Of a DNA stretch of 32,000 nt, positions 11,421 through 28,074 are shown piece after piece (positions within the stretch are counted from its first letter, which is position 1; every line of letters starts with the position of its first letter). A program made the position numbers and the translations under genes. This DNA is from Planctomycetales bacterium (lineage in GTDB: Bacteria; 4484-113; JAFGCY01): assembly GCA_022646745.1 (NCBI GenBank), contig CP060262.1:1440001-1472000 (forward strand). Reading direction: 5' to 3'. Below the pieces are notes generated by a model. That model was not told the origin of the DNA and did no database searches. It saw only the letters and a list, made by a program, of their open reading frames with translations.

Positions 11421-14400
11421 TCAGATGCCGTCAGACAGGCTGAACTGTCCGATGCCGGTCAGCTCAGTCGGGTCCAGCAGCCGGCTGAAGTGGCGTGCAT
11501 TGCTTTCATGGCCCAGCACCGTGACGTACACATCACCGCTGTCGGCATCAGGCGGGACGATCACGCTGATTTCCGTATTGCTCCATGCGCTGACCGTGGC
11601 CAGGGTGCTGCCACCACCTTCGCTGCGGAAGCTGACGAAGCTGTCCTCCTGCAGCACTCCGAACTTGTCGCCGCTGAGCACGACAGTCTGTCCGGGATAG
11701 CCGCGAGGTTGAGTCAGGCCCAGCAGGAAGGGATCGGCATCCAGCACCTCGATGTCATCCAGGCTCCAGCCGTTGCCAGCCTGGCTGTTGCCATCGGAGT
11801 CAAACAGGAACAGCAGGCGGAAGGGCTGCTGGGACATCCCGTCCAGGTTGAACAGCAGCGGCTGGTAACCCGCACTGTCATTGCGCTGCTCGAACAGGTT
11901 GGCTTCCAGCACCTCTGTGCCGTCATAGCGCACCATGTAGACCACTGCACGGTCGCCATTCGAGGCATCGACATCGAGGCTGTGGTGCAGGCGGATCCGC
12001 GGCCGGACTGTCGCACTCAGGTCGATCAGCGGGCTGTACAGCCAGCCCAGCGCATCGTTGCCATAGTCGCCACCGCCATCCGGTCCGAAGTAGGCATGGT
12101 TCAACCCGCGCCAGGGGGCCTGCGTGCCCGTGCGCCAGCGCAGCGGGTCAGCGCCGATGCGGAACCACTCGCCATCCGGCTGGCCGTTGTCAGTCCCACC
12201 GAGGTCGACCACATCCTCGAAATCCTCCAGCCAGCCGGGGCCGGCCACGGGGTTCACCACACTGAGCACGACGCTGTCCTCGGCGGCCAGGTCGTCCAGC
12301 CCGCCGTTGTCACTTTCGTCGTCATAGGCCCGCGCGCGCAGCAGCACCGTGCCAGTGCCCGTCTGGCGGCTGTCCCAGCTTGCCGTGAATGTCTTCGTTG
12401 GGTTCTCCAGGTCATTGTCCGGGATGCTGTCAAACAGCACCGGCGGAGCGCCGACCGGCAGGCCGATCAGCTCGACCGCCACTGTGTCATCGCTCAGCGT
12501 CAGCTGCACATCCACGATCCCGTCCACGCTGGCAGCCGCCAGCGGGCTGTCAATGCTGACGGTCGGCGGCGTGCCCTCCGGCACGGTGATGTGCACGTCG
12601 TCAATCCACATCCCGCCGGCCTGGTTGCCGCCATTGCAGTCGATCACCCAGAAGATGCGCACCTCCGCTCCACAGAACGGTGTCAGGTCAAAGCTGTAGC
12701 TGTCCCAGTCCGGGTTGCCACCGCCGAAGAAGCCGTCCCCGGCGTAGGTCTCGTCATCAGCGGTGATGAACAGGAAGCCGCCGTCGTTGGCCATCCGGTG
12801 CAGGTAGTTGAACTCGAGAGACGCGCTGGCGAAGCCGGTCAGGTCGATCACCGGCGCGTACAGCCAGTCATTGCTGTTCGGGGCGTAGTTGGCCGTACTG
12901 CCACTGGAGTGCATCGAAGGGGTGGCATCGCCGCCGTCTGAGTTGTCAGCACCCCAGATTGTGTTGTTCGTGCCGGCGTTGCCATCCAGCACGGACCAGC
13001 CCGCCGGCAGTGTGTCATCCGCGAGGCCGTCGAAGCCCTCCTGCCACTCCGGCACGATGTGCGCATTGTCACAGCTGACATGCAGCGGCAGGCTGATGAT
13101 GTGCCCGACATCGTCCGTCACCGTGGCCGTGATGGTCTGCCCGCCGTTGAACTCAAACGCGCTGTCCCAGTTCAGTTGCCAGAACCCGCCACTCTCCGCT
13201 ATCACGGTGCCGAGGTGCCGCGTCGGGGTTTCGAAGGACACCTTGAGGATGTTGCCGCTGCCGCCCGTGATCTCGAGCTGCAGGTCCGTCAGGCCGCTGA
13301 CGGTCGCTCCCTCCAGCGGGCTGGCCCAGCTGACAACCGGCGCTTCATAGGGCCCGGCATCGTACAGCTTGATCGCCTCCCAGACGTTCACGAAGCGCAC
13401 CGTGCCGTTGGTGTCGTTGTCAATGAAGCCGCGCGGGTTGGCGCCGTTGTTCACATGGTCCATCACGGTGGCGCTGCCCTGCAGCATGCCGCGCACCTCA
13501 TGGTTGCTGCTGTCCGGCCCCATATGCGCCCACAACAGCGCCGCACAGCCCGCCACGTAGGGGCAGGCGAAGCTGGTGCCGGCGCCGCTTGCGCCGTAGG
13601 ATGTGTCCGAACCGTTCGATGTCGAGCGCACCTGCACGCCGGGGGCCGCGATGTCCACCCAGCTGCCGTAGTTGGAGAAGTTGGCGCGCGCGTCGTAACG
13701 ATCGGCGGTCGGGATCTCGCCGTCAACCTGGCTGAAGTCCTGGTCGTTGGAGTCGTTGACAAGCGTGGTCGCACCGACCCCGAGGCATTCAGGGTAGTAA
13801 GCCGGGTAGAACAGCCCGCCCCAGTTGTTGTTGCCGGCCGCCACCACCACCAGCACCCCGTCGCTGTCGCACTGCTTGGCCGCCAGCTGCATGATGCGGT
13901 CCGGGAAGTCCCCGCCGAGCGACATGCTGATGATGTCCGCGCCGAGGTAGTCCGCCAGCAGCATGCCCTCCGCCACCTGGGTCTCGCTGCCGCTGCCGCC
14001 GCCGCTGAGCACCTTGACCGGCAGGATGCTGACCTGCTGGTTGGCACCGGCCAGCCCAAGCCCGTTGTTGCCGACGGCGCCGACGATGCCGGAGCAGTAG
14101 GTGCCGTGGCCGTGGTCGTCAAACGGGTCGTTGTCCTTGTTGATCACGTCCGTCAGGATGCCCGGCTCGTTGTAGGGAAACTCCGCGGCGGGCTCGATCG
14201 CGTTGTCAGCGAGGTCCTCATGCGTGTAGCGCACGCCGGTGTCCACCACCGCCACCACGACGTCATGGCTGCCGACCCCGCTGTCCCAGGCCTGGCCGTC
14301 GATCGCGCCGATGCGCCAGTTGGCCCAGGTGCCGCCGTCGCTGCCGCTCAGGTTCAGGTGCATCGGGTCATTCGGGGCAGCGCTGGTGCTGCGGTTAAGC

Positions 14401-15092
14401 TCGCCCATGCGCTGTGGTGCAGCCGGTGAGGACTGGATCACCTGCTGGATGCGCTCCTGATCCAGCGGCACCGGCTCAGTTTCCACCGTCTGGCTGATGT
14501 CCAGGTAGAAGTCGTAGGTCACCTCGCGCACCAGGCCCTTGTTCTCGCTGAGCAGCTTCTGCATCAAGGCATCGAGCTGGCTGACATCCGCCAGGCCCGG
14601 CACCTCGTAAGCGGTGAAATTGACATCCCTGTAGAACACGCGGCCGAACTCACTGAGGCCGTAATGCTGGGCGAAGTTGTGACTGACGCGGCGGTAGAAG
14701 GGATGGTCCACCAGCGGGTGGTTGTCCGTCGCCCGCCTGAGGTCCGCCTGCGCCCCGCCGCCCATGTACTGCTGCTGCACCGCCGGGTCGGGCTGGTTCT
14801 CCCAGACGACCACGAGGCGGTTGGCGGCGAAGTCCTGTCCGGCCCGCGCCGTGCGCCGAGGCAGTTCCAGCTCGGCCTCCGGGTCGGCTGCATTGCGCAA
14901 TCCGGCGAGGTTGGCCGGCTCACCGGGCAGGGCCAGCATGCCGGGGTCATCCACGAGGCCGGTGCTGCCTGCATCGTTGCCGAACACCGGGGCACTGCCT
15001 GCATCCGGTTCAGCACTGAGCTGCTGCTGCGAGGCGCATGCGCCGATCAACAGCACAAACAGGATCATAGGAGTGAAGATGCTTCGTTTCAT
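11421..15092 (-). CDS. Large exported S8 subtilisin-family serine peptidase lipoprotein with C-terminal beta-sandwich domains and an IPT/TIG-like domain
   Basis: Catalytic triad motifs appear in D-H-S order: VVVAVVDTGVRYTHEDL, DHGHGTYCSGIVGAVGNNG, GTSFACPYVAGCAALLW, plus the oxyanion-Asn region VVVAAGNNNWG. There are two MAM or choice-of-anchor-J-like segments (SNDWLYAPVIDLTGFASASLEF...MWIDDVHI and LGWLYSPLIDLSATVRPRIRL...GWSLDDIEV). The C-terminal IPT/TIG-like segment is GYPGQTVVLSGDKFG...VYVTVLGHESN. The start is taken at ATG 15092 (MKRSIFTPMILFVLLIGACASQ, lipoprotein signal), not 15194. Confidence 0.9.
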   Translation of the reverse strand: MKRSIFTPMILFVLLIGACASQQQLSAEPDAGSAPVFGNDAGSTGLVDDPGMLALPGEPANLAGLRNAADPEAELELPRRTARAGQDFAANRLVVVWENQPDPAVQQQYMGGGAQADLRRATDNHPLVDHPFYRRVSHNFAQHYGLSEFGRVFYRDVNFTAYEVPGLADVSQLDALMQKLLSENKGLVREVTYDFYLDISQTVETEPVPLDQERIQQVIQSSPAAPQRMGELNRSTSAAPNDPMHLNLSGSDGGTWANWRIGAIDGQAWDSGVGSHDVVVAVVDTGVRYTHEDLADNAIEPAAEFPYNEPGILTDVINKDNDPFDDHGHGTYCSGIVGAVGNNGLGLAGANQQVSILPVKVLSGGGSGSETQVAEGMLLADYLGADIISMSLGGDFPDRIMQLAAKQCDSDGVLVVVAAGNNNWGGLFYPAYYPECLGVGATTLVNDSNDQDFSQVDGEIPTADRYDARANFSNYGSWVDIAAPGVQVRSTSNGSDTSYGASGAGTSFACPYVAGCAALLWAHMGPDSSNHEVRGMLQGSATVMDHVNNGANPRGFIDNDTNGTVRFVNVWEAIKLYDAGPYEAPVVSWASPLEGATVSGLTDLQLEITGGSGNILKVSFETPTRHLGTVIAESGGFWQLNWDSAFEFNGGQTITATVTDDVGHIISLPLHVSCDNAHIVPEWQEGFDGLADDTLPAGWSVLDGNAGTNNTIWGADNSDGGDATPSMHSSGSTANYAPNSNDWLYAPVIDLTGFASASLEFNYLHRMANDGGFLFITADDETYAGDGFFGGGNPDWDSYSFDLTPFCGAEVRIFWVIDCNGGNQAGGMWIDDVHITVPEGTPPTVSIDSPLAAASVDGIVDVQLTLSDDTVAVELIGLPVGAPPVLFDSIPDNDLENPTKTFTASWDSRQTGTGTVLLRARAYDDESDNGGLDDLAAEDSVVLSVVNPVAGPGWLEDFEDVVDLGGTDNGQPDGEWFRIGADPLRWRTGTQAPWRGLNHAYFGPDGGGDYGNDALGWLYSPLIDLSATVRPRIRLHHSLDVDASNGDRAVVYMVRYDGTEVLEANLFEQRNDSAGYQPLLFNLDGMSQQPFRLLFLFDSDGNSQAGNGWSLDDIEVLDADPFLLGLTQPRGYPGQTVVLSGDKFGVLQEDSFVSFRSEGGGSTLATVSAWSNTEISVIVPPDADSGDVYVTVLGHESNARHFSRLLDPTELTGIGQFSLSDGI

Positions 15093-15280
15093 TGCTTTTC
15101 CAGCCAGTCGGACAGGCATGCTTGCCTGCCCTTTACAATTCTTCCACAAATTACATGCTACTTCAAATTGAGATGAAACCGACCGCCGGTACACAATTAA
15201 TGATTGGTATGTGTCACCATAAAATCCGGTAAAATCAGGGTGTTTACCCGTATTCCACGCTGAAACCAGAGGAATTCCTC

Positions 15281-18103
15281 ATGAGAAATGCACTGTATGT
15301 CTGGGCCATCGCCGTCTCAATCCTGCTCACCTCCTGCGGAGGCGGGTCGGGCGGAGACCAGGTACTCTTCAAGCGCGAGAAGTTCGAGTTCAACGAGGAT
15401 CAGCCGGTCCTCGAATACAGCATCGAACATGCCAAGCCCGCGCCGGAGATCACCGTGGCCATGGACGGGGTGCCGGACCTTTCAGACCTGCCGGCCGTCG
15501 AGCGCAGCTCGAGCAATGCGCCGGAGGACTTCATCCGCTTTGGTTCGCAGCTGATCACGCCGGAAATGAAGTCCTTCTCCAGTGTGGACGGGGATTTCCT
15601 CGTGATGACGCCGGACTGGGTGCGCACCGCCAACCCGCCCACCAGCGACCTGGCCTGGGCGGTCTACGGCTTCGGCCTGACCGGCTATGTCAGCCCCGGC
15701 ACCCTGCAGCTGTGGTGGGATGGCACCACGCCGCCCGCCGGCAACTACTTCATCGGCATCAGCAACTTCGATGCCGGCCGCTGGCAATGGTTCCAGGGAC
15801 CGGCCCCCGGCACGGCGATGGACTTCGGCAACCTGGCGGACTTCTTCTCCCCGACGGACACCCTGTACATCGCCGTCGTGCTGACCGGGCAGGGCAGCTA
15901 CAGCCTCGGCCAGCTGCGCCTCGGTGACAACATCGCCCCGGTGGCGGACCTGCAGGCTGACACGACCAGCGGCACCGTGCCGCTGACCGTCAACTTCGAC
16001 GCCAGTGCGAGCTATGACATCGACGGCGACATCACAAGCTTCGAATGGGACTTCACCGGTGACGGCTTCGGTGCCCCCGGTACCGACCAGACCGCCCAGC
16101 ATGTCTACAACCAGACAGGCAACTTCCTCGTGCGCGTGCAGCTGACGGACAATGAGGGCGCCCAGCGCATCGCGGAGACCGTTGTCAGCGTCACCCCTGT
16201 CATTGACAATGACCCGCCTACGGCGGTGCTCGGCGCCAACAAGACCACCGGTTCCGCCCCGCTCACCGTGCTGTTCAACGGCACCGGCAGCTCCGACCCG
16301 GACGGCACGATCGTCAAGTACGAATGGGACCTTGACGGCAACGGCAGCTTCGAGAAGGACACCGGCGCGGTTGACAGCACGTCCACCACCTTCAACGATC
16401 CCGGCAACTATGACATCAAGCTGCGTGTGACCGACGACCTCGGCAGCACGGCGACTGACAACCTGCTGATCGAGGTGATGGAGGTCGGTGCGCAGAGCCC
16501 GCCGGACGCACTGATGCTGGTGGATTACGGCTTCCGTACCGATGACGGCGTGTTCAACTTCGACGCCTCCGTCTCGACCGACCCGGACGACGACATCGTC
16601 AAGTATGAGTTCGACTGGGACGGTGACGGAACCTACGAGCTTGACAACGGCGGCACGGCCACTGCCCAGCATACCTATCCCGGCATCGGCACATACACGC
16701 CGGTCCTGCGCGTGACCGACAGCGGCGGCCTGAATGACACCTTCCAGGCCACGCTCATCGTTGACAGCGCCGGCAACTACCACGAGACCGAGGCGAATGA
16801 CGACAGCGCTTCCGCTGACCAGCTGCCGGGCTATGGCGGCTATGCGAAGGGCATCCAGGGCTGGCGTGGCAACCTCGGAGTGGGCGGCTATGACGGCAGC
16901 GAGGAGGACTGGCTTGTGTTCGCGGCACCCGAGCCACTGGAGGTGCAGCTGAACCTGGCCTTCATCGATGCCGAGGCTGACATTGACATCCGCCTGTTCC
17001 ATGAGTCCGACCTGAGCACCTCGGTGGCATCCTCCACCGGCACCGGCAACACGGAGTCGATCAGCTACTCGATCCCGGCTGACAAGACCGGCACCTACTT
17101 CATCCGGATCTACATCTACGCCAGCGCGACTGACCGCGGTCCGGCGGACTACACCTTCGATGCCAGCGTGAACCGCCTGCCGGTGGTCACCTTCAACGTC
17201 AGCCCGCTCAGTGGCAACGTGCCCTTCCCGGTCACCCTGGATGCGACGGGCAGCTACGACCCGGACGGCACGATCACAAAGTACGAGTGGGACGTCGATG
17301 GCAACGGCAGCTTCGAGCAAGACACCGGCACGACCTCAGTCTTCATGGGCGACATGACGGTTTCCGGCACGGTGGCGGTCAAGGTGCGCGTGACCGACGA
17401 TCAGGGCGGCAAGGTGACGAAGACCGTAAATGTCAACTCGATCAATGGCAACCCGAATGTGGTCCTGACCGCCAGCCCGCTGAGTGGCGAGGCCCCGCTT
17501 GTGGTGGACTTCGATGCCAGTGGCAGCACCGACCCGGACGGGCATGACCTGACGAAGTTCGAGTGGGACTACAACGGAGACGGCACCTGGGACGAGACCA
17601 CCACCGACCCCTTCGTGACCCATACCTACTATTCGGCAGGCACAGTCAGCGCGATGGTGCGGGTGACGGACCAGTACGGTGCCAGTGGCACCGACTCGGT
17701 GGATATCTCTGTCAGCCTGACCTACGACGAGGTTGAGGACAATGACGACTACCTGACCGGCAACATGTTCCCCGGCACGGACTTCACCGGCTGGTTCGGC
17801 AACCTCGGGCCGGACGGGCCGCTGGATGGAGACGAGTCGGACTGGATGAAGATCCAGATCGTGACACCGGGCAGCTATGTGATCAACATGTACTTCACCG
17901 ATGCGCTGTCCGACCTCGACCTGAAGCTGTATGACACCGACGGCACGTCCCAGATCGGCTCATCGACAAGCACCACTGACAACGAGTCGATCACGTACAA
18001 CTTCACCGCGCCCGGTACCTACTACATCAATGCCTACGTGTGGGCCAGCTCGAACCCGAAGCTCGAGCAGGACTACATGATGGAGGTCCTGCCGGAAGCC
18101 TAG
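15281..18103 (+). CDS. Paralog 1 of the lipoprotein family: N-domain, PKD x3, PPC, PKD x2, PPC (940 aa)
   Basis: Lipobox: MRNALYVWAIAVSILLTSCGGGSGG. The family N-domain spans aa 70-217 (nt 15488-15931). PKD signatures include PLTVNFDASASYDIDGDITSFEWDFTGDG...VRVQLTDNEG. PPC signatures are ETEANDDSASADQL...EEDWLVFAA...GTYFIRIY (nt 16778-17170) and EVEDNDDYLTGN...ESDWMKIQI...GTYYINAY (nt 17717-18091). Confidence 0.9.
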   Translation: MRNALYVWAIAVSILLTSCGGGSGGDQVLFKREKFEFNEDQPVLEYSIEHAKPAPEITVAMDGVPDLSDLPAVERSSSNAPEDFIRFGSQLITPEMKSFSSVDGDFLVMTPDWVRTANPPTSDLAWAVYGFGLTGYVSPGTLQLWWDGTTPPAGNYFIGISNFDAGRWQWFQGPAPGTAMDFGNLADFFSPTDTLYIAVVLTGQGSYSLGQLRLGDNIAPVADLQADTTSGTVPLTVNFDASASYDIDGDITSFEWDFTGDGFGAPGTDQTAQHVYNQTGNFLVRVQLTDNEGAQRIAETVVSVTPVIDNDPPTAVLGANKTTGSAPLTVLFNGTGSSDPDGTIVKYEWDLDGNGSFEKDTGAVDSTSTTFNDPGNYDIKLRVTDDLGSTATDNLLIEVMEVGAQSPPDALMLVDYGFRTDDGVFNFDASVSTDPDDDIVKYEFDWDGDGTYELDNGGTATAQHTYPGIGTYTPVLRVTDSGGLNDTFQATLIVDSAGNYHETEANDDSASADQLPGYGGYAKGIQGWRGNLGVGGYDGSEEDWLVFAAPEPLEVQLNLAFIDAEADIDIRLFHESDLSTSVASSTGTGNTESISYSIPADKTGTYFIRIYIYASATDRGPADYTFDASVNRLPVVTFNVSPLSGNVPFPVTLDATGSYDPDGTITKYEWDVDGNGSFEQDTGTTSVFMGDMTVSGTVAVKVRVTDDQGGKVTKTVNVNSINGNPNVVLTASPLSGEAPLVVDFDASGSTDPDGHDLTKFEWDYNGDGTWDETTTDPFVTHTYYSAGTVSAMVRVTDQYGASGTDSVDISVSLTYDEVEDNDDYLTGNMFPGTDFTGWFGNLGPDGPLDGDESDWMKIQIVTPGSYVINMYFTDALSDLDLKLYDTDGTSQIGSSTSTTDNESITYNFTAPGTYYINAYVWASSNPKLEQDYMMEVLPEA

Positions 18104-18197
18104 GCTGCAGACCGGACTGCGATGCAACTGCTTGTCCTGGTTTGTCCTGGGTTAGAATCTGTGCGGACGGAACCCGGTAAAGTGCGAGGACAAGCGC

Positions 18198-20291
18198 ATG
18201 TTCAGACAGCTCAGTGGCCTGCTGGCCGGAGCGATGCTGCTGCTGGCAGCCTGCTCCAGCGGAAGTGGCGGCCAGGTAAACCAGCCGACAGGCGACGCTG
18301 TCCTGCCGCAGCTTGAATCGCAGCTGCCGGCCATTTCTGCCCTGCCTGCCATGCAGCGCAGTACCAGCAATACGCCGGAAGCCTGCATCCGCACGGGAGC
18401 CGACATCTACAAGGTCTCGGCGAAGATGAATGCCGAGGTGACCGGTGACAAGCTCTCGATGAGCCCGACCTATGATCCGCAGGGCGACCCGCCGATGCAT
18501 GGACTGAGCTGGGGGATCTACGGTTTCAACATCGCAGACTACCAGCGCGGCACGGAGATCCAGGCAAAGTGGAATGGCACTGCGCCCGCCAGCTCCGGCA
18601 TCTACATCGGGGTCAGTGATTACTCCAGCGGACACTGGCAGTGGCGCCAGGGTACGGCGGACGGGACCGTGGACTTCCCGGGGCTGGCTGACTATTTCTC
18701 TGCCAACGGCGACCTGTATGTGGTGGTGCTGCTGGCAACGGAGGGCCAGTTCACCTTCGGCAGGCTGCGCCTCGGCGGCAACTTCCCGCCGGTGATTGAT
18801 TACACGATTGACAACGACAGCGCCCAGGGCAAGCTGACGGTCAACATCGATGCCTCCGCCAGCTACGATCCGGATGGCACTCTGACTTTCTTTGAATGGT
18901 CCGCCGAGGGTGGGCCGATCTTCGAGCCATCCGGTCCGTTCCTGTACTGGGAGTATGACCATGTCGGCGAGTACGACTGCATAGGCAGGGCGCATGACCT
19001 CGAAGGAGGGATGACTGAATTTGTCATCCCGATCAGCGTGACCCCCGTGCCTGGCAATGACCCGCCGGTGGCCGATATCTACTCTGAATCTGAAGTGGAA
19101 TCCGGCCTGGTGCCGCTTTCCGTCACGCTCAATGCACAGGACAGCACGGACCCGGAGAACGGTTTCATGACATTCCGCTGGGACATTGACGAGGACGGGT
19201 ACTTCGAGCAGTTCACCTTTGGCAGTCCGGTGTTCAAGGCTCTGTACATCGCAGCCGGCACCTACAACCCCAGCGTGATGGTGATTGATGAGTTCGGTGC
19301 CGTCGACACGGCCACGATGCAGATCGAGGTGCTGCCCGTGGAGGGCACGGAAGCTCCCGTTGCCAGACTGGAAGCCGTCTACTGGTATGACAACACTGCG
19401 GGAGAACGGTACTTCACCGCACAGGGATCCTACGACCCTGACAATGACATCGTGAAGTACGAATGGGACTTCGAGGGTGACGGCACGTTCGACGTTGATT
19501 CAGGGATCGATCCCGTGAATAACGTGACCTATTCCCAGGATGGCGGCGTGTTCAACGTCACTATGAGGGTCACTGACAGCGGCGGACGCAGTGACACGGC
19601 AACCTGCCCCGTAATGGTCACGCCATTCTCCGGCCAGCCGGAGCTCGAACCGAATGACAGCCCGGAGACGGCGATCAGCCTGGGCAGTTTTGGCAACGAG
19701 TGCGTGCGGGTGCGCGACTTTCCCGGCCAGCTCAAGTTCGCTGAGGATACAGAGGACTGGTATGTGGTCCATGCCGCACACAACGGCCAGCTGTGGTTCA
19801 ACCTGATCTTCACGCACAGTTTCATGGACATGGACATTGAGATGTACAGCCCTCTTGACCTGGTGAACCCGCTGTACTTCAGCTACTCGGATACCGACAA
19901 CGAGTTCATGTCCGTATTAATTACGGCACCGGGGGACTACTTCCTGCGGGTGTTCACCGACCAGGCAGGGGAGGCCGGGCAGGACAGCGGCTACAAGCTG
20001 GACTTCTGGGACCCCTCCAAGCCGGTGGCTTTCGTCACGGCCTCCGCAACGGTAGTGGAGACGGGGACCGAGGTTGTGCTCAACGCGGGCCGCAGCTATG
20101 ACCGTTACCTGGAGGGCCTGATCTACTTCTTTGACATGGATGGCGACGGGATCTTCGAGAGCGAGCCCGGCGGATGGCTCGGTACTGGCACCGTCAGCTG
20201 GGAAGGACCGCAGGAGCTCGGCGTCAAGGTACAGGACATGCTGGGAATGGAGTCAATCGCCACGGTGACAGTGACGGGCATCGCCCCCTGA
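18198..20291 (+). CDS. Paralog 2 of the lipoprotein family: N-domain, PKD x3, PPC, PKD (697 aa)
   Basis: Lipobox: MFRQLSGLLAGAMLLLAACSSGSGG. N-domain nt 18342-18779 (LSWGIYGFNI...YIGVSDYSSGHWQWRQG...RLRLGGN). PKD motif: DPDNDIVKYEWDFEGDGTFD. PPC: ELEPNDSPETAISL...TEDWYVVHA...GDYFLRVF. Confidence 0.9.
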   Translation: MFRQLSGLLAGAMLLLAACSSGSGGQVNQPTGDAVLPQLESQLPAISALPAMQRSTSNTPEACIRTGADIYKVSAKMNAEVTGDKLSMSPTYDPQGDPPMHGLSWGIYGFNIADYQRGTEIQAKWNGTAPASSGIYIGVSDYSSGHWQWRQGTADGTVDFPGLADYFSANGDLYVVVLLATEGQFTFGRLRLGGNFPPVIDYTIDNDSAQGKLTVNIDASASYDPDGTLTFFEWSAEGGPIFEPSGPFLYWEYDHVGEYDCIGRAHDLEGGMTEFVIPISVTPVPGNDPPVADIYSESEVESGLVPLSVTLNAQDSTDPENGFMTFRWDIDEDGYFEQFTFGSPVFKALYIAAGTYNPSVMVIDEFGAVDTATMQIEVLPVEGTEAPVARLEAVYWYDNTAGERYFTAQGSYDPDNDIVKYEWDFEGDGTFDVDSGIDPVNNVTYSQDGGVFNVTMRVTDSGGRSDTATCPVMVTPFSGQPELEPNDSPETAISLGSFGNECVRVRDFPGQLKFAEDTEDWYVVHAAHNGQLWFNLIFTHSFMDMDIEMYSPLDLVNPLYFSYSDTDNEFMSVLITAPGDYFLRVFTDQAGEAGQDSGYKLDFWDPSKPVAFVTASATVVETGTEVVLNAGRSYDRYLEGLIYFFDMDGDGIFESEPGGWLGTGTVSWEGPQELGVKVQDMLGMESIATVTVTGIAP

Positions 20292-20403
20292 ATGATCGCT
20301 GGCGGATTGCTTCCTGGGAAAGTCAATGATCGAGACTGATCGAGTAGAATTTTCCCAGCCTCCTGCACTGCCATAAGGAACCAGGCAGGTTCAAGGAATA
20401 AAG

Positions 20404-22518
20404 ATGAAAGCTCTTCTCGCCATCGCGTGCGCAGGCTGCCTGCTGCTCGCGGCTTCATGCAGCAGCCAGCCGGCTCAACCGGAGCAAGCGGCTGACCTGC
20501 CCGTTTCCGCGCAGGCTGAGGTTGTACAGCTCAGTCCCTCGCTGTCTGACGGGCTGCCGGGTCTGGACAGCCTGCCTCAGCAGCAGCGCAGCGCCAGCAA
20601 TGTCCCGGAGGACTTCCTGCGGGATGGATATCAGACTTATCAGCCTGATGCATTCGCCAATGCGAGCATTGTCGGGAACATGCTTGTGATGGTTGCGGAT
20701 TACGAGCCAGCGGCCGAGCCGCCGACACGTGAGCTGAGCTGGGCGATCTACGGTTTCAACATCACTGATTTCCAGCGCCAGCCGGAACTGCAGGTACTGT
20801 GGGAAGGCCCCAGGCCGGACGGAGCGCGCCACTACATCGGTGTCAGCGACTTCAGCAGCAATCGCTGGCAATGGTTCCAGGGCACGGATCAGGACATCAT
20901 TGATTTCGGTAGCCTTGACGGCTACTTCTCCGGGAATGGCGACATCTATTTCACCATCCTGGTCGCGGACAAGGGCAACTTCAATCTCAGCCGGCTGCGT
21001 CTGGGGGAGAACCTGCCGCCCGTGGCCAGCCTGATCCCGAACCAGACCAGTGGAACGGGCTCTCTGGAGGTCCAGTTCGACGCCTCGGGATGCCACGATC
21101 CGGACGGCAGCATTGCAGGCTACGAATGGTCAATGGAGGATCCGGACTACACGGATTTCCGGTACCCGGCCCCGGTGGTTTTCTGGACTTACGACCACGC
21201 GGGCGAGTACACCTGCACACTGCGCCTGACGGACAATGACGGAGCCACCGCCGAGCTCAGCATCCCGATTTCGGTCGCCCTGGTGGATGGCAACGCTGCG
21301 CCGCTTGCCTCGATCGTGCCTGACACCAGCGGAGGACCGGTCCCGCAGTGGATCAACTTCGACTGCAGCGGCAGCAGTGACACGGACGGCTCGATAGCCG
21401 GCTACCGTTTCGACTTCGACGGAGACGGGCATTTCGAGATTTTTGGCAGTGCCGTGCAGAAGTGGTTCTTCGCCGAACCGGGCAGCTATGAGATCTCCGT
21501 GATGGCGATTGACAACCAGGGCAGCTTCGGCACAGCCTCAACCACGGTGGTGATTGACCCGGTTGATGGTACTGAGCCGCCGACCATCGTCGTCAAGTCC
21601 GACTACAGCTTCAACTCACCGGGTGCCTTCAGGATAGACTGGAGCGAGAGCAGCGACCCCGACAATGACATCGTCTCGTTCGAGACGGACCTGGAGGGTG
21701 ATGGCATATTCGATTATTCTTTCGCCCCCGGTGAGGAATTCGTGGCGACCTATGCCCAGACAGGGCAGACTTTCAACGCGACATTCCGCGTGACGGACAG
21801 CGGCGGCCGGACAGACGTTGCCAGCATACCGCTGCGGATCGGGCCGAATTCCGGCCTGGCGGAAACTGAACCCAACGGTACCCCGGGCGAGGCCGAGGAG
21901 TTCACCGGCTTCATGAACTACTCCAAGGGGATCTGCAACTGGAAGGGCTCACTGGATGAGGGCGGCGGCGACAGCGCGGACTGGTACTCCTTCGAATCCG
22001 ACCGCAGCGGTCCAGTGGCGTTCGTCGCGGATTTCCTCCGCAGCGAGATAGACATGCGCCTGGACCTGTATTCCGCCGGCGACACCGACAACCCACTGGC
22101 CAGCTCCCACGGCATCGTGGACAAGGAAATCCTCAAGTTCGAGCTACCCGCCGCCGGCCATTACCTGATCCGTGTGAGCATAGATCCCTCAGCACTGGCG
22201 AAGGGCCCCGGTGACTACACATTCCGCTGCCGCAACTATGACGGCCCGCACGCCGCCCTGTCCGCTGATCCACTCTTTGGGTCGGTTCCATTTGACATTT
22301 CGCTGGATGCATCTGCCAGCACAGTTGAGATGGGCTACATCACTGAATACCAGTTTGATGTCGACGGTGACGGGATCTTTGAAGTGACCGGCCAGTTCCA
22401 GCCCACCTATGACACGCAGATCACAGTACCCGGTGCAATCGTCGTCAGCGTGCGCGTAATCGATGAGTGGGGCCTCGCGGATACAGACTTCGTCATAGTC
22501 ACTGCCTTGCCCATTTGA
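20404..22518 (+). CDS. Paralog 3 of the lipoprotein family: N-domain, PKD x3, PPC, PKD (704 aa)
   Basis: Lipobox: MKALLAIACAGCLLLAASCSSQP. N-domain nt 20572-21006 (LSWAIYGFNI...YIGVSDFSSNRWQWFQG...RLRLGEN). PPC: ETEPNGTPGEAEEF...SADWYSFES...GHYLIRVS. Confidence 0.9.
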   Translation: MKALLAIACAGCLLLAASCSSQPAQPEQAADLPVSAQAEVVQLSPSLSDGLPGLDSLPQQQRSASNVPEDFLRDGYQTYQPDAFANASIVGNMLVMVADYEPAAEPPTRELSWAIYGFNITDFQRQPELQVLWEGPRPDGARHYIGVSDFSSNRWQWFQGTDQDIIDFGSLDGYFSGNGDIYFTILVADKGNFNLSRLRLGENLPPVASLIPNQTSGTGSLEVQFDASGCHDPDGSIAGYEWSMEDPDYTDFRYPAPVVFWTYDHAGEYTCTLRLTDNDGATAELSIPISVALVDGNAAPLASIVPDTSGGPVPQWINFDCSGSSDTDGSIAGYRFDFDGDGHFEIFGSAVQKWFFAEPGSYEISVMAIDNQGSFGTASTTVVIDPVDGTEPPTIVVKSDYSFNSPGAFRIDWSESSDPDNDIVSFETDLEGDGIFDYSFAPGEEFVATYAQTGQTFNATFRVTDSGGRTDVASIPLRIGPNSGLAETEPNGTPGEAEEFTGFMNYSKGICNWKGSLDEGGGDSADWYSFESDRSGPVAFVADFLRSEIDMRLDLYSAGDTDNPLASSHGIVDKEILKFELPAAGHYLIRVSIDPSALAKGPGDYTFRCRNYDGPHAALSADPLFGSVPFDISLDASASTVEMGYITEYQFDVDGDGIFEVTGQFQPTYDTQITVPGAIVVSVRVIDEWGLADTDFVIVTALPI

Positions 22519-22640
22519 ACCATGCCAGGGGTAGCTGGGACCTGCTTGCCGCGAAGCTCAGTTTGGTGATTCTTTCAGCTAGAATTCTGTGCTGCCCCTC
22601 CAGCATGCTGGAGAGTATCCGGGCGCAGTGAGGAATAAAG

Positions 22641-24740
22641 ATGCGTGCTTCATTTGCCCTTCTGCTGGCAGGCTGCCTTTTCTGCCTGGCAGCCTGTTCA
22701 TCCGGCGCTGCCAACCTGCAGGAAAAGGCTGCCACGCCTGAGCGCCAGTCCGGTCCGGTTGAACTGCCGCAGGACCTGCTTGCCCAGCTTCCAGCCCCGG
22801 CCGAGCTGCCCGCCGTTGGGCGCAGCTTCAGTGATACACCGGCGGACTACATCCGCAAGGGTGCGGAGATCATCACGCCCGGCAGCCGCGAGAATGCGAT
22901 CGTGTTCGGGGACAGCCTGCTGATGGCCCCGGACTGGGACCCCGCCGCCAACCCGCCGAAGCTGGATGTGAGCTGGGGCATCTACGGTTACCACCTGCCG
23001 GGATTCGCAAGGGAGGCTCAGGTCGACCTGCAGTGGGGCGTGCGCCCGGACTCCGGCGAGTACTACGTCGGCATCACGGATTACGGCAGCGGCCGCTGGA
23101 AATGGCAGCTTGGCAATGACGATGACCACTTCGACTTCGGCTCGCTGGACGGCTATTTCTCGAACTTCGACGCGATCTACTGCTGCGTGTTGCTGACCGG
23201 CAGCGGCAGCTTCGAGCTGACCCGTGTGCGGCTCGGTGGCAACTTCGCCCCGACCGCCAGCTTCACCGTGGCCCAGGACAGCGGCCAGTACTTCTTCACC
23301 ACAGGGTTTGACGGCTCCGCCAGCTCCGACCTGGATGGCACGATCGCCGAGTACCACTGGTCATTCGAGGACCCAATCTACTTCACACCCGGTGACCTCG
23401 GGCCGACCCCCAGCCACGACTACGACCATGTCGGCACCTTCACCTGCACCCTGCGCGTGGTTGATAACGAAGGTGGCACCGGCGAAGCCACCGCCACGAT
23501 CAATGTGACCGGTGAACCGGGCAACCTGCCACCGATCGCGGACATCGTGGCCTTGCCGAACGGCGGTCCGCTGCCCCAGGCCATCAACTTTGACGCCTTC
23601 AACAGCATGGACCCGGATGGCGGCATCGTCAATTACCGCTGGGACCTTGACGACGACGGGTTCCATGAGCTGCAGACCCCGGTCCCCTTCGCCTACCGCG
23701 AATTCATCGAGGCTGGCACCTTCACCGTCGGGGTGATGGTGATCGATTTCTTCGGGGAAAGTGCCACGGCCACGACGGATGTCACGATCACTCCGATCAG
23801 CGGTGAGAACCCACCCACTGCTGAACTGAGCATCGACTACTACTGCCTGCAGAGCGGAATCATCCGTTACATCGACACGAGCGGCCTCGTGGACCCCGAC
23901 AATGACATCGTCAAGTACGAATGGGACTTCGAGGGTGACGGCACGTTTGACTATGACCTCGGCCTGAACCCCGGTGGTGACATCACCTACACGCTGCCCG
24001 GCGAATTCACGCCAACGGTGCGCATCACCGACAGTGGTGAGCGGGAGGCCACCGCCAGCCTGAAGGTGATCGTGTCAAACGGGGTGGACCCGCAGGAGAC
24101 TGAGCCCAACAATGCCGAGACGGAGGCGGACAGCCTCGGCGGTTTCCTCAACTACGCGAAGCATATCCGCGACTGGAGTGCTAGCGTCGGCGGCAGCGAC
24201 ACCGAGGACTGGTACGCGATCGATGCCGACCGGGCCACGACCGCCAGCTTCTGGGTGGACTTCAGTTCGGCGACGGTCGACCTTTCACTGGCTCTGTACC
24301 ATGAGTCAGACCTGGTCGTTCCGTTGATTGAATCGATTGACAACGTGGACCGTGAATACATCAACTTTGGCCTGCCGGCCGCCGGGCGCTACTACCTGAA
24401 GGTGTTCGTGCCCGGTTCCGCCATCGAGACCGGCCCGGGCAACTACAAGCTGACCTGCCTGGAGAACCATCCGCCCATCGCCGTGCTGACTGGATCACCG
24501 GACATTGGGTTTGCACCCTTGCTGGTAATGCTGGATGCCAGCCTGAGCTCGGACGATGAGGACGGGCTGTCGGTCATCTTTGACTATGACCTGGACGGTG
24601 ACGGCTTCTTCGAAACCACCTTTGAGAACAGCACGATCAATACGACCCTCGTCTCACCCGGGTCATACCCGCTTGCTGTGCGGGTAACGGATTCGCTCGG
24701 GGAAACTGACATCGCCTACAAGATAATCACCGTGAACTAG
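22641..24740 (+). CDS. Paralog 4 of the lipoprotein family: N-domain, PKD x3, PPC, PKD (699 aa)
   Basis: Lipobox: MRASFALLLAGCLFCLAACSSGAAN. N-domain nt 22806-23240 (VSWGIYGYHL...YVGITDYGSGRWKWQLG...RVRLGGN). PPC: ETEPNNAETEADSL...TEDWYAIDA...GRYYLKVF. Confidence 0.9.
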   Translation: MRASFALLLAGCLFCLAACSSGAANLQEKAATPERQSGPVELPQDLLAQLPAPAELPAVGRSFSDTPADYIRKGAEIITPGSRENAIVFGDSLLMAPDWDPAANPPKLDVSWGIYGYHLPGFAREAQVDLQWGVRPDSGEYYVGITDYGSGRWKWQLGNDDDHFDFGSLDGYFSNFDAIYCCVLLTGSGSFELTRVRLGGNFAPTASFTVAQDSGQYFFTTGFDGSASSDLDGTIAEYHWSFEDPIYFTPGDLGPTPSHDYDHVGTFTCTLRVVDNEGGTGEATATINVTGEPGNLPPIADIVALPNGGPLPQAINFDAFNSMDPDGGIVNYRWDLDDDGFHELQTPVPFAYREFIEAGTFTVGVMVIDFFGESATATTDVTITPISGENPPTAELSIDYYCLQSGIIRYIDTSGLVDPDNDIVKYEWDFEGDGTFDYDLGLNPGGDITYTLPGEFTPTVRITDSGEREATASLKVIVSNGVDPQETEPNNAETEADSLGGFLNYAKHIRDWSASVGGSDTEDWYAIDADRATTASFWVDFSSATVDLSLALYHESDLVVPLIESIDNVDREYINFGLPAAGRYYLKVFVPGSAIETGPGNYKLTCLENHPPIAVLTGSPDIGFAPLLVMLDASLSSDDEDGLSVIFDYDLDGDGFFETTFENSTINTTLVSPGSYPLAVRVTDSLGETDIAYKIITVN

Positions 24741-24793: not shown

Positions 24794-25192
24794 ATGAACA
24801 CCGTTGGACAGTACAACTGGGTGGCACTCTTCCTGCTGGGCGGGGCGGTGCTGATCGGGCTGGCATTCGCTTTCCTGAACCTGTGGCGTCCGCGGCGGCC
24901 GAACTTCCTCAAGCGCCTGAGCTATGAATCCGGCGCGCAGGCCACCGGTGACGCGCTGGTGCGCTTCAACATCCGCTTCTACATCCTCGCGATCGTGTTC
25001 CTCATGTTCGACGTGGACATCATGTTCATCTTTCCCTGGGCCACCGCCTTCCGGCTGCTGGTGTTCGGTAATGACGACATCACCTTCACGCCGATCGGGG
25101 CCGCCTCACTGGGTGAGATGTTCGTGTTCCTCGGCATCCTGCTCGTCGGCTGGGCCTATGCCTACCGCAAGGGAGCGCTGGAATGGGTCTGA
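24794..25192 (+). CDS. nuoA: NADH-quinone oxidoreductase subunit A homolog (ND3/NuoA family)
   Basis: Family hallmarks: SYESG, FNIRFYILAIVFLMFDVDIMFIFPWA, YRKGALEW. Three predicted TM segments. Overlaps the next gene by 10 nt. Confidence 0.9.
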   Translation: MNTVGQYNWVALFLLGGAVLIGLAFAFLNLWRPRRPNFLKRLSYESGAQATGDALVRFNIRFYILAIVFLMFDVDIMFIFPWATAFRLLVFGNDDITFTPIGAASLGEMFVFLGILLVGWAYAYRKGALEWV

Positions 25193-25635
25193 AGGACCTC
25201 ATCCGCGAGGCCAGTGCCCATTCCCTGTGGCCGCTGATGCTCGGACTGGACTATGCCACGCTGGAACTGTTCAGCGCGATCTCGCCGCGCTATGACATCG
25301 CGCGCTTCGGCTCTGAGGTGATGCGCCCCAGCCCGCGCCAGGTGGACCTTTTGATCGTGGCCGGCGTCGTCAACAACAAGATGGCCCCGGTGATCCGCCG
25401 GCTGCATGCCTCGATGGCCGACCCGGCCTTCGTGATGGCATTCGGCGCGGGGGCGATCAGCGGCGCGCCCTTCGACGGCAGCTATGCGGTGGACGGGGGA
25501 GTGGACCGCATCGTACCAGTGGACATCTATGTGCCGGGCGACCCGCCGCGGCCCGAGCAGCTGATCGATGGCATCATCGCCCTGCGCGAGCGCATCCTCT
25601 CGGGTGCGCTGGATGAGCGGTTTGCGTGGCGGTAG
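25183..25635 (+). CDS. nuoB: NuoB/PSST-family subunit lacking all four cysteine ligands of Fe-S cluster N2
   Basis: Family motifs are conserved: SLWP, RYDIARFGSEVMRPSPRQVDLLIVAG, NKMAPVIRRL, VPVDIYVPG-PPRPEQL. At the E. coli ligand columns, GLSCCYVE reads GLDYATLE (D23 Y24, nt 25249-25254), MGACA reads FGAGA (G90, nt 25450-25452) and PGCPP reads PGDPP (D120, nt 25540-25542). Confidence 0.9.
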   Translation: MGLKDLIREASAHSLWPLMLGLDYATLELFSAISPRYDIARFGSEVMRPSPRQVDLLIVAGVVNNKMAPVIRRLHASMADPAFVMAFGAGAISGAPFDGSYAVDGGVDRIVPVDIYVPGDPPRPEQLIDGIIALRERILSGALDERFAWR

Positions 25636-25654
25636 GATCGCATTACCATGAACC

Positions 25655-26452
25655 ATGAGTATCAAGGCCAGCTGCCCTTGTCAGGTCAGGGAATCACTCC
25701 CCTGGGATCCTGATCCTCCTGCAAGTGTCCGGGAGGAAACCCCATACTTCAAACTGCACAAGCTCATCATCCGCAGGGAAAGCTGGCAACGCGGAATCCT
25801 GCACATCTGCACCAGATGCAATGCCGACTGGTATCTCGATCATGCATCGGGATTTCTGCTCAGAATTCCGGCAGGCTGCCTGGATAAGGCCAGGTCCTGG
25901 GATGCCGGTATGGAGAAACCGGCGAAAGTGCTTGCGGAACTGCTGCTGAACATTGGCAGCGTTGGATTCGCGGCGTTTCAAAGGCGGATGAAGTGGCTGA
26001 TGTTCCCATGCTGTGTCAGGGATCATGCGGGCGTCTGGCATGAGAAGGCCTTTGTCATCCTGAGTGCCTCGATGCCCCTTCCCGAATGGCAAAAGGGAGA
26101 GTCTGCATTGTCGGATGCAGCGCATGTTGAGCAGTCAAGGTTTGCCCTGCCGCTGGATATCCGCAGGGAAAGCTACAATGCCATGGAGATTGCCATGGGC
26201 TTCAATCCGACTTCGATCCGGACGTCATCCGGCCGCTGTTTCAATCTCTGGCCAAACACGGACTTCATGGACAAGGACGGGATCATCGGATCTGAATGCA
26301 GCCTGGCAACAGATGTCGATCCGTTTCGCCTCAAGCTGCTTACAAGCAGCGAGCTGGGGCCGCGACCATGGCGGCGCAATGTCCGGAGGGTTGACTACCC
26401 GACTTTCCATGGAGAGCTGACGGAGGATTTTGAGGATCTTCTGTATTCATAG
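25655..26452 (+). CDS. Hypothetical protein with an N-terminal CxC...CxxC motif (265 aa), inserted inside the nuo operon
   Basis: Starts 19 nt after the nuoB stop. Cys7, Cys9, Cys52 and Cys55 (SCPC...ICTRCNADWY) could form a zinc-ribbon-like site. GC is lower (53% in the 25741-25800 sample). It uses AGG/AGA Arg codons and many A/T-ending codons, unlike flanking genes. I recognise no family. Confidence 0.5.
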   Translation: MSIKASCPCQVRESLPWDPDPPASVREETPYFKLHKLIIRRESWQRGILHICTRCNADWYLDHASGFLLRIPAGCLDKARSWDAGMEKPAKVLAELLLNIGSVGFAAFQRRMKWLMFPCCVRDHAGVWHEKAFVILSASMPLPEWQKGESALSDAAHVEQSRFALPLDIRRESYNAMEIAMGFNPTSIRTSSGRCFNLWPNTDFMDKDGIIGSECSLATDVDPFRLKLLTSSELGPRPWRRNVRRVDYPTFHGELTEDFEDLLYS

Positions 26453-26807
26453 ACTGGCTCGTCTCGGATTTCCCAGTGAATCAGTCAACCTGAAGAACAA
26501 GGGTCAGGGATACCGGAAGAACCGGCGCGGCCCAGCCGCGATTGGGAGGGGATGCAGCGAAGTCAGGGAAATGCGGGGACTGGAGCTGATCAGAAAACTC
26601 TGTGCGCTCGGTGGCTCTGTGTTGACAATTCTCCAGTTTGACTGGGCTGAGGCTAGCCTGCACTTGGTTGGCAATGCGGCTGGGGCGGAGCGATATTGGT
26701 GAACGCAGAGCCGCAGAGTCTGGCAATGAGTGTCGTCGGGCTCATTGCTTGCTCCGCATTGCTCATTGCAGAGGGGCTTTCCGCGTGGCTGCGCGCACGC
26801 GGCGGAG

Positions 26808-26853
26808 TGTGGCTCTTGAGAGCCACAGGGCCCTGTTGGTCTGCAGACCAACA
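26808..26853. repeat. Two adjacent perfect hairpins or palindromes in a non-coding stretch
   Basis: tgtggctc-ttga-gagccaca (26808-26827) has an 8-bp stem and 4-nt loop. tgttggtctgcagaccaaca (26834-26853) is a 20-nt perfect palindrome. Both lie 90-135 nt downstream of the stop of the minus-strand gene ending at 26944. No T-tract on either strand. Confidence 0.6.
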
Positions 26854-26943
26854 CACCATCACTCATTGCCTCGCGGCATGCTATCCCAGGCTCAGAGGGA
26901 CTGCGCCACAACTTCCAACAACCGGTCTCTGGAATCCTTGCAG

Positions 26944-27309
26944 CTACTTCTTCTTCGTCGGCTTGGCCGGCAGTGATGAGACGTAGTCGTAGGACTTCCG
27001 GAACCAGCTGCGCAGTGTGCGTGTGTTACCAAACAGTGCAGGCGGCACGGTGACATACTCCCGCTGGACATATCCGGGGATAGAGTGGTAGAGCCGGGTA
27101 CCGTACTTCTCGAGGAAGGCCTCACGCTCATCCTTCGCCAGCCGCAGGCCGATCTCGTTGAACTTCGAGATGCTGGAGTACATATTGCCGTTCAGTGAAG
27201 TGTAGGGAGCCGCCGCCCCCCTGGCCTCGACCCCCTCCACGCCCTCGATCATCTTCATGTAGGCCGCGAGCACTGCCGGGTCCACATCCGCAAATTTGTT
27301 CTTCGCCAT
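26944..27309 (-). CDS. Small hypothetical protein (121 aa from MAKNKF), possibly TfoX-N/YjbR-like
   Basis: Likely start is the ATG at the complement of 27307-27309 (MAKNKFADVDPAVLAAYMKMIEG...). The lysine-rich tail is LPAKPTKKK. Its resemblance to small TfoX-N-like proteins is from memory only. It lies opposite to the nuo genes it interrupts. Confidence 0.55.
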   Translation of the reverse strand: MAKNKFADVDPAVLAAYMKMIEGVEGVEARGAAAPYTSLNGNMYSSISKFNEIGLRLAKDEREAFLEKYGTRLYHSIPGYVQREYVTVPPALFGNTRTLRSWFRKSYDYVSSLPAKPTKKK

Positions 27310-27492
27310 GCCTGCCTCCGGGCTGATTCTAGCTTTTGCTGCAGGGCCTTGGAACAGCATTGGAAGCTGCCCCATCGGCTAGAATTACAGGAACCTTCTG
27401 CATTTGATATGTATAAGGTAACGCTGTGGGGCTTTTGATCGTTTATATCTGTATGCCGATTGCCGTAATCCAGCCAGGATGGGGAGGACTTG

Positions 27493-28074
27493 GTGCTCCC
27501 TGATGAGCTTGCCGGTCAGATCCGCGAGGACTGCGGTGATGTGCTGCTGCTGGACCCCGCCCGCGGCTGGGCGATCCTGACGGACAGCGGCCAGCTGCAG
27601 CTGGTCTGCCGCCAGCTGAAGAACATCGGCTTCATCCGTGCGCTTAACATGACCGCCAACCACCTCGGCGGGCCGGACTTCCACCTCTACCTGACGCTCA
27701 GGCACGGCAGGCGGCATGATGTCAGTCTCACACTGAAATGGAAATTCACCCTGCTGGAGGGCAATGCCCCGGCAGCGGACAGGGGTGGGGAGGATACTGA
27801 AGCAGCGCCGGCCTATGCCGGGCAGAGCGTGCACCCCAGCCTGAGCCTGATCTGGCGGGCGACGGAGCTGATGGAGCGCGAGATCTTCGAGTTCTTCGGC
27901 ATCCCCTTCGCTGGCAACCCGAACCTCATCGGGCTGATCCTCGACCCGCAGCTGCAGGGCTTCCCGCTCAGGCGGGAATTCCGGGCTGCCTCACATGAGA
28001 ACTACGCAGAGAACGTGCTGAAGCAGCGCGCCGACGCGGCAATGCGGGAGGTGCTTGATGACGCGCAGCTCTGA
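27493..28074 (+). CDS. nuoC: NuoC/30-kDa-family subunit homolog
   Basis: Conserved C-terminal core: WRATELMEREIFEFFGIPFAGNPNLIGLIL...GFPLRREF (canonical W..A.W.ERE..D.FGI.F.GHP.L.R.L...HPLRKD). GGGGAGGA (27481-27488) precedes TTG 27490 and GTG 27493. The exact start is uncertain. Confidence 0.8.
   Translation: MLPDELAGQIREDCGDVLLLDPARGWAILTDSGQLQLVCRQLKNIGFIRALNMTANHLGGPDFHLYLTLRHGRRHDVSLTLKWKFTLLEGNAPAADRGGEDTEAAPAYAGQSVHPSLSLIWRATELMEREIFEFFGIPFAGNPNLIGLILDPQLQGFPLRREFRAASHENYAENVLKQRADAAMREVLDDAQL

Follow-up and report, generated by a model that had tools for sequence, protein, structure and literature searches.

Segments built from PKD and PPC domains are known as substrate-binding accessories of secreted peptidases (PMC4356367, PMC3327674). 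In the clostridial collagenases ColG and ColH, a non-catalytic segment in which a PKD-like domain (s2) precedes a PPC-superfamily collagen-binding domain (CBD, s3) serves insoluble-substrate binding, as it is required for insoluble collagen fibres and not needed for gelatin (PMC4356367). In the marine Pseudoalteromonas E495 M4 protease, PPC domains bind protein substrates and make the enzyme catalytically more efficient on proteins (PMC3327674), and the PPC-containing tail of a Grimontia collagenase binds triple-helical collagen (PMC6168687). Two other kinds of system set lipid-anchored accessories beside a degradative enzyme, i.e., the SusE/F proteins and surface glycan-binding protein B (SGBP-B) of Bacteroidota, which are anchored strings of Ig-like beta-sandwich domains without catalysis, and dentilisin of Treponema denticola, in which the S8 lipoprotein PrtP stands next to the accessory proteins PrcA and PrcB. 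Here, we analyzed a 32-kb stretch of DNA from Planctomycetales bacterium (positions 1,440,001 to 1,472,000 of contig CP060262.1, assembly GCA_022646745.1; hereafter "the window"), in which four consecutive genes, numbered P1 to P4 in gene order and all on the + strand, encode lipoproteins with PKD and PPC domains next to a divergently transcribed S8 subtilase. Tentatively, we read P1–P4 as non-catalytic, lipid-anchored surface binding proteins that may supply substrate capture in trans for the S8 protease. A preliminary description of the stretch, made from its letters alone, had not recognized array and peptidase as a described system. The array indeed belongs to no curated adhesin or S-layer family, and our literature search found no paper uniting PPC domain, PKD domain, and lipoprotein; the S8 link, however, proved partial, and since PKD and PPC segments are already known as substrate-binding accessories, the stand-alone combination is a variant of a known theme. 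What is new here is the stand-alone lipoprotein format, an uncatalogued family of N-terminal domains (hereafter "N-domain"), and the placement of a paralogue array beside an S8 protease that has no such accessories of its own.

The four genes, at the coordinates and lengths given in the preliminary description, encode proteins of 940 (P1, 15281..18103), 697 (P2, 18198..20291), 704 (P3, 20404..22518), and 699 aa (P4, 22641..24740). Each begins with a hydrophobic signal sequence that ends at an invariant Cys19 within the lipobox strings quoted there (LLTSCGG, LLAACSS, LLAASCSS, and CLAACSS), so that lipidation is predicted for all four; the lipoboxes of P1, P2, and P4 (LTSC, LAAC, LAAC) are canonical ([LVI][ASTVI][GAS]C), and that of P3 (AASC) is relaxed, being non-canonical at −3. 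The proteins can be aligned end to end and share one domain order after the signal peptide: a linker, an N-domain of ~160 aa, three PKD domains, one PPC domain (diverged in P2), and one PKD domain. This order, proposed earlier and recovered here by Pfam and in a structural model of P4, needs amendment for P1 alone, which carries one additional PKD and a second PPC and thus ends PKD-PKD-PPC. In Pfam scans at the gathering cut-off (PF18911 and PF00801), PKD_4 scored 187, 86, 109, and 130 bits in P1, P2, P3, and P4, respectively, against a cut-off of 27, with three to five matched stretches per protein. The full-length AlphaFold model of P4 (mean predicted local distance difference test score, pLDDT, 83) shows a signal helix (residues 4-16), a disordered linker (17-40), and six beta-sandwich beads, namely the N-domain (41-200), three PKD domains (203-290, 296-385, 392-480), the PPC domain (485-610), and a final PKD domain (612-699). 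Mapped through the paralogue alignment, these boundaries place the block of three PKD domains at 15935..16768 in P1, 18786-19625 in P2, 21016-21846 in P3, and 23247-24080 in P4, and the C-terminal PKD at 17180-17725 (two domains), 20022-20282, 22246-22509, and 24474-24737, respectively. No catalytic domain was found in any of the four by Pfam or NCBIfam, as the preliminary description had held, and NCBIfam gave nothing specific beyond Pfam; the same scans revealed no SLH, T9SS CTD, PEP-CTERM, or similar anchoring or sorting domain, the C-termini being PKD or PPC. Nor did source annotations bear out the possibility, raised earlier, of a well-annotated adhesin or S-layer family: they say only "PKD domain-containing protein" (P1, identical to UNM09583.1 and MCB1219202.1; P3, identical to UNM09585.1), "PKD repeat protein", or "hypothetical protein".

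The array consists of real, maintained genes that are old paralogues. Pairwise identity among P1–P4 is 35-41% over the whole protein and 38-48% in the N-domain, for which the preliminary description had estimated a slightly higher 45-50% by eye. The similarity is far beyond chance, a hidden Markov model (HMM) of the N-domain giving E = 1e-79 to 1e-83. In a neighbor-joining tree, they form four orthogroups with 95-100% bootstrap support, which places the duplications before the divergence of the sampled species. Ratios of nonsynonymous to synonymous substitution (dN/dS) against orthologues are 0.04-0.30, i.e., purifying selection. The idea of an old, maintained family therefore stands for P1, P2, and P4, whose orthogroups span related genomes, while P3 is limited to the window lineage and a single co-resident species. 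Among the related loci (numbered with the prefix L), all four paralogues are carried by HKST-UBA03 (L002), while AC1.30 (L004) and a more distant JGI relative (L013) have P1, P2, and P4 but lack P3; the short contig L003 covers the S8 gene, P1, and the start of P2. Per-domain identities among orthologues gave no clear gradient of a conserved anchor against a variable head. As separate observations on P1, the proteins of L002 and L004 are without one PKD domain (845 vs 940 aa), and the linker (15338-15433; residues 20-51; DQVLFKREKFEFNE.QPVLEY...) is 81-84% conserved in L002, L004, and L013, which, being far above the 14-47% of the P2 and P4 linkers, points to a functional peptide specific to P1. 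The nearest genome in the species-representative collection is the metagenome-assembled genome (MAG) HKST-UBA01 (L001), at 95.5% DNA identity to the window, which came from Hong Kong saline activated sludge (PMC8495973). For NuoD, relatives at 55-96% identity are followed by no more than 46% for any named taxon, which argues that the host belongs to a deep lineage.

The PPC domains lie on the + strand at 16781..17176 and 17729-18100 in P1, 19638-20018 in P2, 21859-22242 in P3, and 24093-24470 in P4. In whole-protein scans against PF04151 (cut-off 25.9 bits), P1 scored 43.2, P4 24.6, and P3 19.0 bits, and P2 went undetected; because P2–P4 fall below the cut-off, their PPC assignment rests on homology to P1. 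Scanned alone, the first P1 segment scored 33.3 bits; each of the five segments on its own matches PF04151 at E ≤ 1, and they are mutually alignable. A profile built from the five matched the CBD structures of ColG and ColH (5iku at 8e-10, 4hpk at 2e-5, and 1nqd at 2.1e-5), and in this alignment two motifs coincide, ExExND at the N-terminus and, at the first strand, DxxD[WY]Y. All five segments share E10, E12, N14, and D51-W52, and four have an Asp three residues before D51. The ExExND and DxxD residues are those reported as the ligands of the dual-Ca2+ site of ColG s3b (Wilson et al. 2003). By sequence, then, these PPC domains are akin to the CBDs of clostridial collagenases, which depend on Ca2+. 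The likeness to the ColG/ColH segment extends to the order, a PKD followed by a PPC-superfamily domain, and to the absence of catalysis. Unlike that segment, P1–P4 are free-standing lipoproteins and not the C-terminus of an M9 peptidase, and they add an N-terminal jelly-roll and a trailing PKD; moreover, the collagen-contact aromatics are not generally conserved. Positions aligned with the "VYKY" collagen-contact strand of ColG are aromatic only in the two P1 domains (Y-x-Y and Y-x-W) and read F-T-D, S-I-D, and F-V-P in P2, P3, and P4, a point against the substrate-capture reading.

The neighboring S8 subtilase (11421..15092, − strand), correctly described earlier as divergent from P1, is itself a lipoprotein (MKRSIFTPMILFVLLIGAC), and its lipobox is conserved in all orthologues. 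A pro-region of ~290 aa is followed by a catalytic domain, two Big_7 domains, weak InhA-like MAM matches, and a TIG match. The catalytic domain is of the thermitase/savinase/deseasin type, with a match at 1.2e-25 to the marine deseasin MCP-01 (PDB 3vv3), and its triad is intact, the D, H, and S motifs VVDTG, HGT, and GTSFA being visible in the translation. Pfam scans found no PKD or PPC domain in this protein. The relation to marine secreted proteases such as the E495 enzyme and deseasin MCP-01 (also S8) is thus one of shared parts, since those enzymes also use PPC domains, which there bind protein substrates and improve proteolysis of proteins (PMC3327674), and of differing arrangement, since those enzymes are secreted and carry their accessories in cis, while in the window the protease and the candidate accessories are separate, lipid-anchored polypeptides.

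In the reading we favor, P1–P4 would be exported through their type II signal peptides and tethered by the N-terminal Cys, with the disordered linker following, so that each would form an extended string of beads in which a membrane-proximal jelly-roll N-domain and PKD spacers carry the heads that likely bind the ligand, i.e., one or two PPC domains. In keeping with this, the full-length P4 model is similar to adhesins built as strings of beads and to the Bacteroides lipoprotein SGBP-B. The S8 protease would be anchored alongside, as a lipoprotein without the PKD and PPC domains that many secreted degradative proteases have in cis, and P1–P4, sharing its membrane surface, would probably capture substrate for it in trans. 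What they hold beside the protease would be particulate protein or some other insoluble polymer of the sludge floc, and the paralogues would differ in ligand preference. Surface exposure, the identity of the ligand, and cooperation with the S8 enzyme are what we infer beyond the lipoboxes, the PPC homology, and the gene adjacency, and exposure rather than periplasmic retention is an assumption that weakens the case. If trans capture is correct, a deep, uncultured sludge lineage has split its substrate-binding modules from the surface protease, giving them lipid-anchored polypeptides and promoters of their own, which would allow modular tuning of which particulate proteins are attacked and would bear on organic-nitrogen turnover in activated sludge.

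Separate promoters are plausible because each gene has its own conserved −10-like element. The spacers P1-P2, P2-P3, and P3-P4 measure 94, 112, and 122 nt, in line with the ~100 nt noted earlier, and each contains TAGAAT on the + strand 40-56 nt before the start codon (18153..18158, 40 nt upstream of P2; 20345-20350 for P3; 22580-22585 for P4). The + strand of the window has only one further TAGAAT site, and the three are kept in L002 and L004 although the rest of the spacer diverges. The divergent control region between S8 and P1 (15093..15280) holds blocks conserved in five genomes, ATTCTTCC (15138-15145) and CCGGTAAAAT (ending at 15235, upstream of P1), and TATAAT precedes nuoA. A generic scan of the array for sigma-70 promoters and terminators returned nothing above shuffled sequence and did not call the TAGAAT sites; comparison across species is what brought out the conserved TAGAAT and TAAAAT elements. 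This arrangement bears on the possibility that P1–P4 are substrates or regulators of the protease, being processed or shed as in the PrtP/PrcA/PrcB system or acting through PPC domains as inhibitor or chaperone. According to Pfam's description, PPC is removed from mature peptidases, and the resemblance to dentilisin is real in that the S8 protein and P1–P4 are all lipoproteins encoded side by side and the S8 protein partially matches the dentilisin model NF033595. That match reaches only 97.2 bits against a cut-off of 300, though; Pfam and NCBIfam found no PrcA or PrcB homology, the accessory proteins of the two systems being unrelated; S8 and P1 are divergent and not in one operon; and four separately promoted paralogues are hard to fit as subunits of one protease. 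PPC domains, furthermore, have measured substrate-binding roles (PMC3327674, PMC6168687). We regard a substrate or regulator role as very unlikely.

How far the S8 link extends was addressed by comparing gene neighborhoods. The divergent S8/P1 pair is kept in L001–L004 and in L013, where the S8 protein is 69% identical to that of the window and the ankyrin and Reg_prop neighbors are absent. L014 offers another context, that of ileS and glyA, in which the genes of an S8 protein and of a distant N-PKD-PPC lipoprotein (about 31% identical) are arranged tail to tail; this S8 protein has the same extended architecture as that of the window, is 28% identical to it over 711 aa, including the pro-region and the first C-terminal domain, and is divergent from a second lipoprotein on its other side, which has a weak N-domain match. 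The linkage suggested by the preliminary description is therefore real within the immediate clade, with a single recurrence in a distant lineage, and it is not a property of the family as a whole. Several observations count against building trans capture upon it. First, most family members are without a nearby S8 gene: none lies within reach of L005–L012 or of the six representatives P0010, P0050, P0028, P0067, P0098, and P0064, of which P0067, P0098, and P0064 bear PPC domains, and at least eight S8-free members sit among housekeeping genes. Second, synteny alone is weak evidence, because the clade also conserves the adjacency of nuoA/B and of an M28 peptidase. The link may be local synteny plus one coincidence.

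These neighborhoods also feed the alternative that the array forms a structural surface coat or mediates cell-cell or floc adhesion unconnected to S8, the N-domain family being the standard surface proteome of the lineage, and phage or predator pressure or niche adhesion being what drives its arrays and exchanges. This large family has several copies per genome, often in tandem (four copies in L005, five in L006, and at least two in each of L015, L016, and L018), with most copies adjoining housekeeping genes. P3 behaves as expected of a dispensable surface gene. A tract of ~2.55 kb (20036..22585), comprising the 3′ end of P2, P3, and most of the P3-P4 spacer, is 94-99% identical to its counterpart (about 14280-16830 of L002) in HKST-UBA03, a distinct co-resident species, while flanking P1, P2, and P4 sequences are 62-88% identical. 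Synonymous divergence (dS) between the window and L002 is 0.07 for P3 and 0.59-0.89 for its neighbors, and this contrast in identity and dS points to recent inter-species recombination of one paralogue. In HKST-UBA01, codon 116 of P3 has changed from TAT to a stop within the conserved AIYGF motif (L001 15287-15289), and the gene is annotated as two fragments; P3 is missing from AC1.30 and from L013. Given this nonsense codon and these absences, P3 seems dispensable or mobile, and the tract is a clean example of recent surface-gene exchange between co-resident species. The neighboring ankyrin lipoprotein, with its hypervariable core (see below), would fit the same picture. Against a coat or adhesin, dN/dS of 0.04-0.30 shows no gene-level diversifying selection, P1–P4 contain neither SLH nor another S-layer anchoring domain by Pfam or NCBIfam, and the recurrence of S8 adjacency in L014 is left unexplained. 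On balance, we consider a coat or adhesin function rather unlikely.

The most novel element of the array is the N-domain, which the preliminary description did not single out. It lies at 15434..15928 in P1, 18306-18779 in P2, 20527-21009 in P3, and 22761-23240 in P4. Of 46 diverse members, none had a consistent Pfam match; no NCBIfam model exists for it, and no sequence relative in the PDB scored below E = 0.2. An AlphaFold model from the 46-sequence alignment is a confident all-beta sandwich (pLDDT 94.2) for which Foldseek returned weak, generic jelly-roll matches (best against the PDB E = 2.3e-3, template-modeling score, TM, 0.51), including Cry toxin domain III, carbohydrate-binding modules (CBM) 6, 32, 35, and 86, fucose-binding modules, and phage tail proteins. 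Against viral structures, it matched only generic jelly-roll tail proteins, at 8.8e-4 at best. A C-type lectin identity, hinted at by a WIGL...W.W-like motif and by matches to Mincle and CLEC proteins at E 0.2-0.9, was rejected because the model is all-beta; the conserved N-domain motif [WY][IV]G[LIV][SA][DN]....RW.W mimics the C-type-lectin signature, apparently by coincidence.

These fold matches underlie a further alternative, that P1–P4 are glycan-binding lipoproteins whose N-domain is a lectin or CBM capturing polysaccharide and not protein, as in SusE/F or SGBP-B. The top Foldseek matches of the N-domain are CBM6, CBM32, CBM35, CBM86, fucose-binding modules, and Cry toxin domain III, the full-length P4 model matches SGBP-B (PDB 6e57) in Foldseek, and among other family members there are beta-propellers of types known from glycan-active proteins. 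The array also shares with SusE/F and SGBP-B its lipid anchor, its string of beta-sandwich domains, its lack of catalysis, and its position beside a degradative enzyme. The fold matches are weak (E ≥ 2e-3 against the PDB, TM ≤ 0.51), however, with the CBM matches at TM 0.28-0.44, and neither sequence nor a strong structural match places the N-domain in a CAZy CBM family. There is no sequence homology to SusE/F or SGBP-B; the domain types are PKD and PPC, the enzyme next door is a protease, and the locus is without SusC/D or a polysaccharide utilization locus, as the Pfam scan of open reading frames (ORFs) in the window detected no SusC/SusD pair, glycoside hydrolase, or TonB-dependent transporter. 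The N-domain, moreover, is membrane-proximal, which is unusual for a substrate-binding head. We consider polysaccharide capture improbable and keep substrate capture for the protease as the favored reading.

To place the N-domain more widely, we relied on an exhaustive HMMER search of 1.84 billion representatives (clusters at 50% identity), as word-indexed homologue searches with N-domain profiles returned one match each time. The search yielded 829 representative clusters with E ≤ 1e-3, of which 263 reach E ≤ 1e-10. Nearly all of the 150 best place the domain behind a lipobox, at about residues 50-210; a simple pattern recognized the lipobox in 117 of them. C-terminal parts differ among members: in a sample of 65, PKD occurred in 48, SBBP or PQQ-like beta-propellers in ~12, papain-like Peptidase_C1 in four, and PPC by Pfam in five, the PPC profile built here finding about 20 among the 150. 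This variation leads us to regard N-domain plus PKD as a constant N-terminal module with variable heads. Members that carry a name are all entered as "[bacterium]" or, doubtfully, as "Planctomycetales" MAGs, and the family is apparently confined to one deep lineage. Members with PQQ/BamB-like or SBBP propellers or Peptidase_C1 payloads often form tandem clusters of two to five genes (e.g., L006 397-15500, L015, and representatives P0007-P0150). A family of at least 829 representative clusters with a confident predicted fold and no Pfam model deserves definition, and whatever its function, it marks much of the predicted surface lipoproteome of the lineage. More speculatively, the N-domain could be a lineage-specific surface-display module that docks, close to the membrane, to a dedicated envelope component or export route and bears interchangeable payloads (PPC binders, beta-propellers, papain-like proteases), in which case P1–P4 with S8 would be a surface machine degrading particulate protein, the protein-directed counterpart of Sus-like or cellulosome systems; we hold this to be an improbable extension.

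Beyond the array and the protease, positions 2675-24740 are rich in lipoproteins, as a 612-aa protein (LLLASCSGG) and a 223-aa protein, both without assigned function, and an ankyrin-repeat protein have lipobox-like N-termini in addition to S8 and P1–P4. An M28-PA-PDZ peptidase is encoded at 5703-7583. The ankyrin-repeat lipoprotein (779 aa; 7879-10218, − strand) lies upstream of the array, and its residues ~250-720 (chiefly 8053-9439) are 24-48% identical to the HKST-UBA01 orthologue, while its flanks are 84-92% identical and the surrounding genes 95-98% identical in DNA. With a GC content of 52% against ~62%, this core seems to be a hypervariable cassette within a surface protein. Directly after the array, in the region 24794-30984, follow nuoA and nuoB, which are split from nuoD (28055-29209) and nuoH by a 265-aa ORF and three − strand ORFs; the former has no Pfam match, one of the latter is weakly TfoX_N-like, and no NuoC domain was detected in this region. 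L013 has genes for a methyltransferase and a CN-hydrolase after nuoB.

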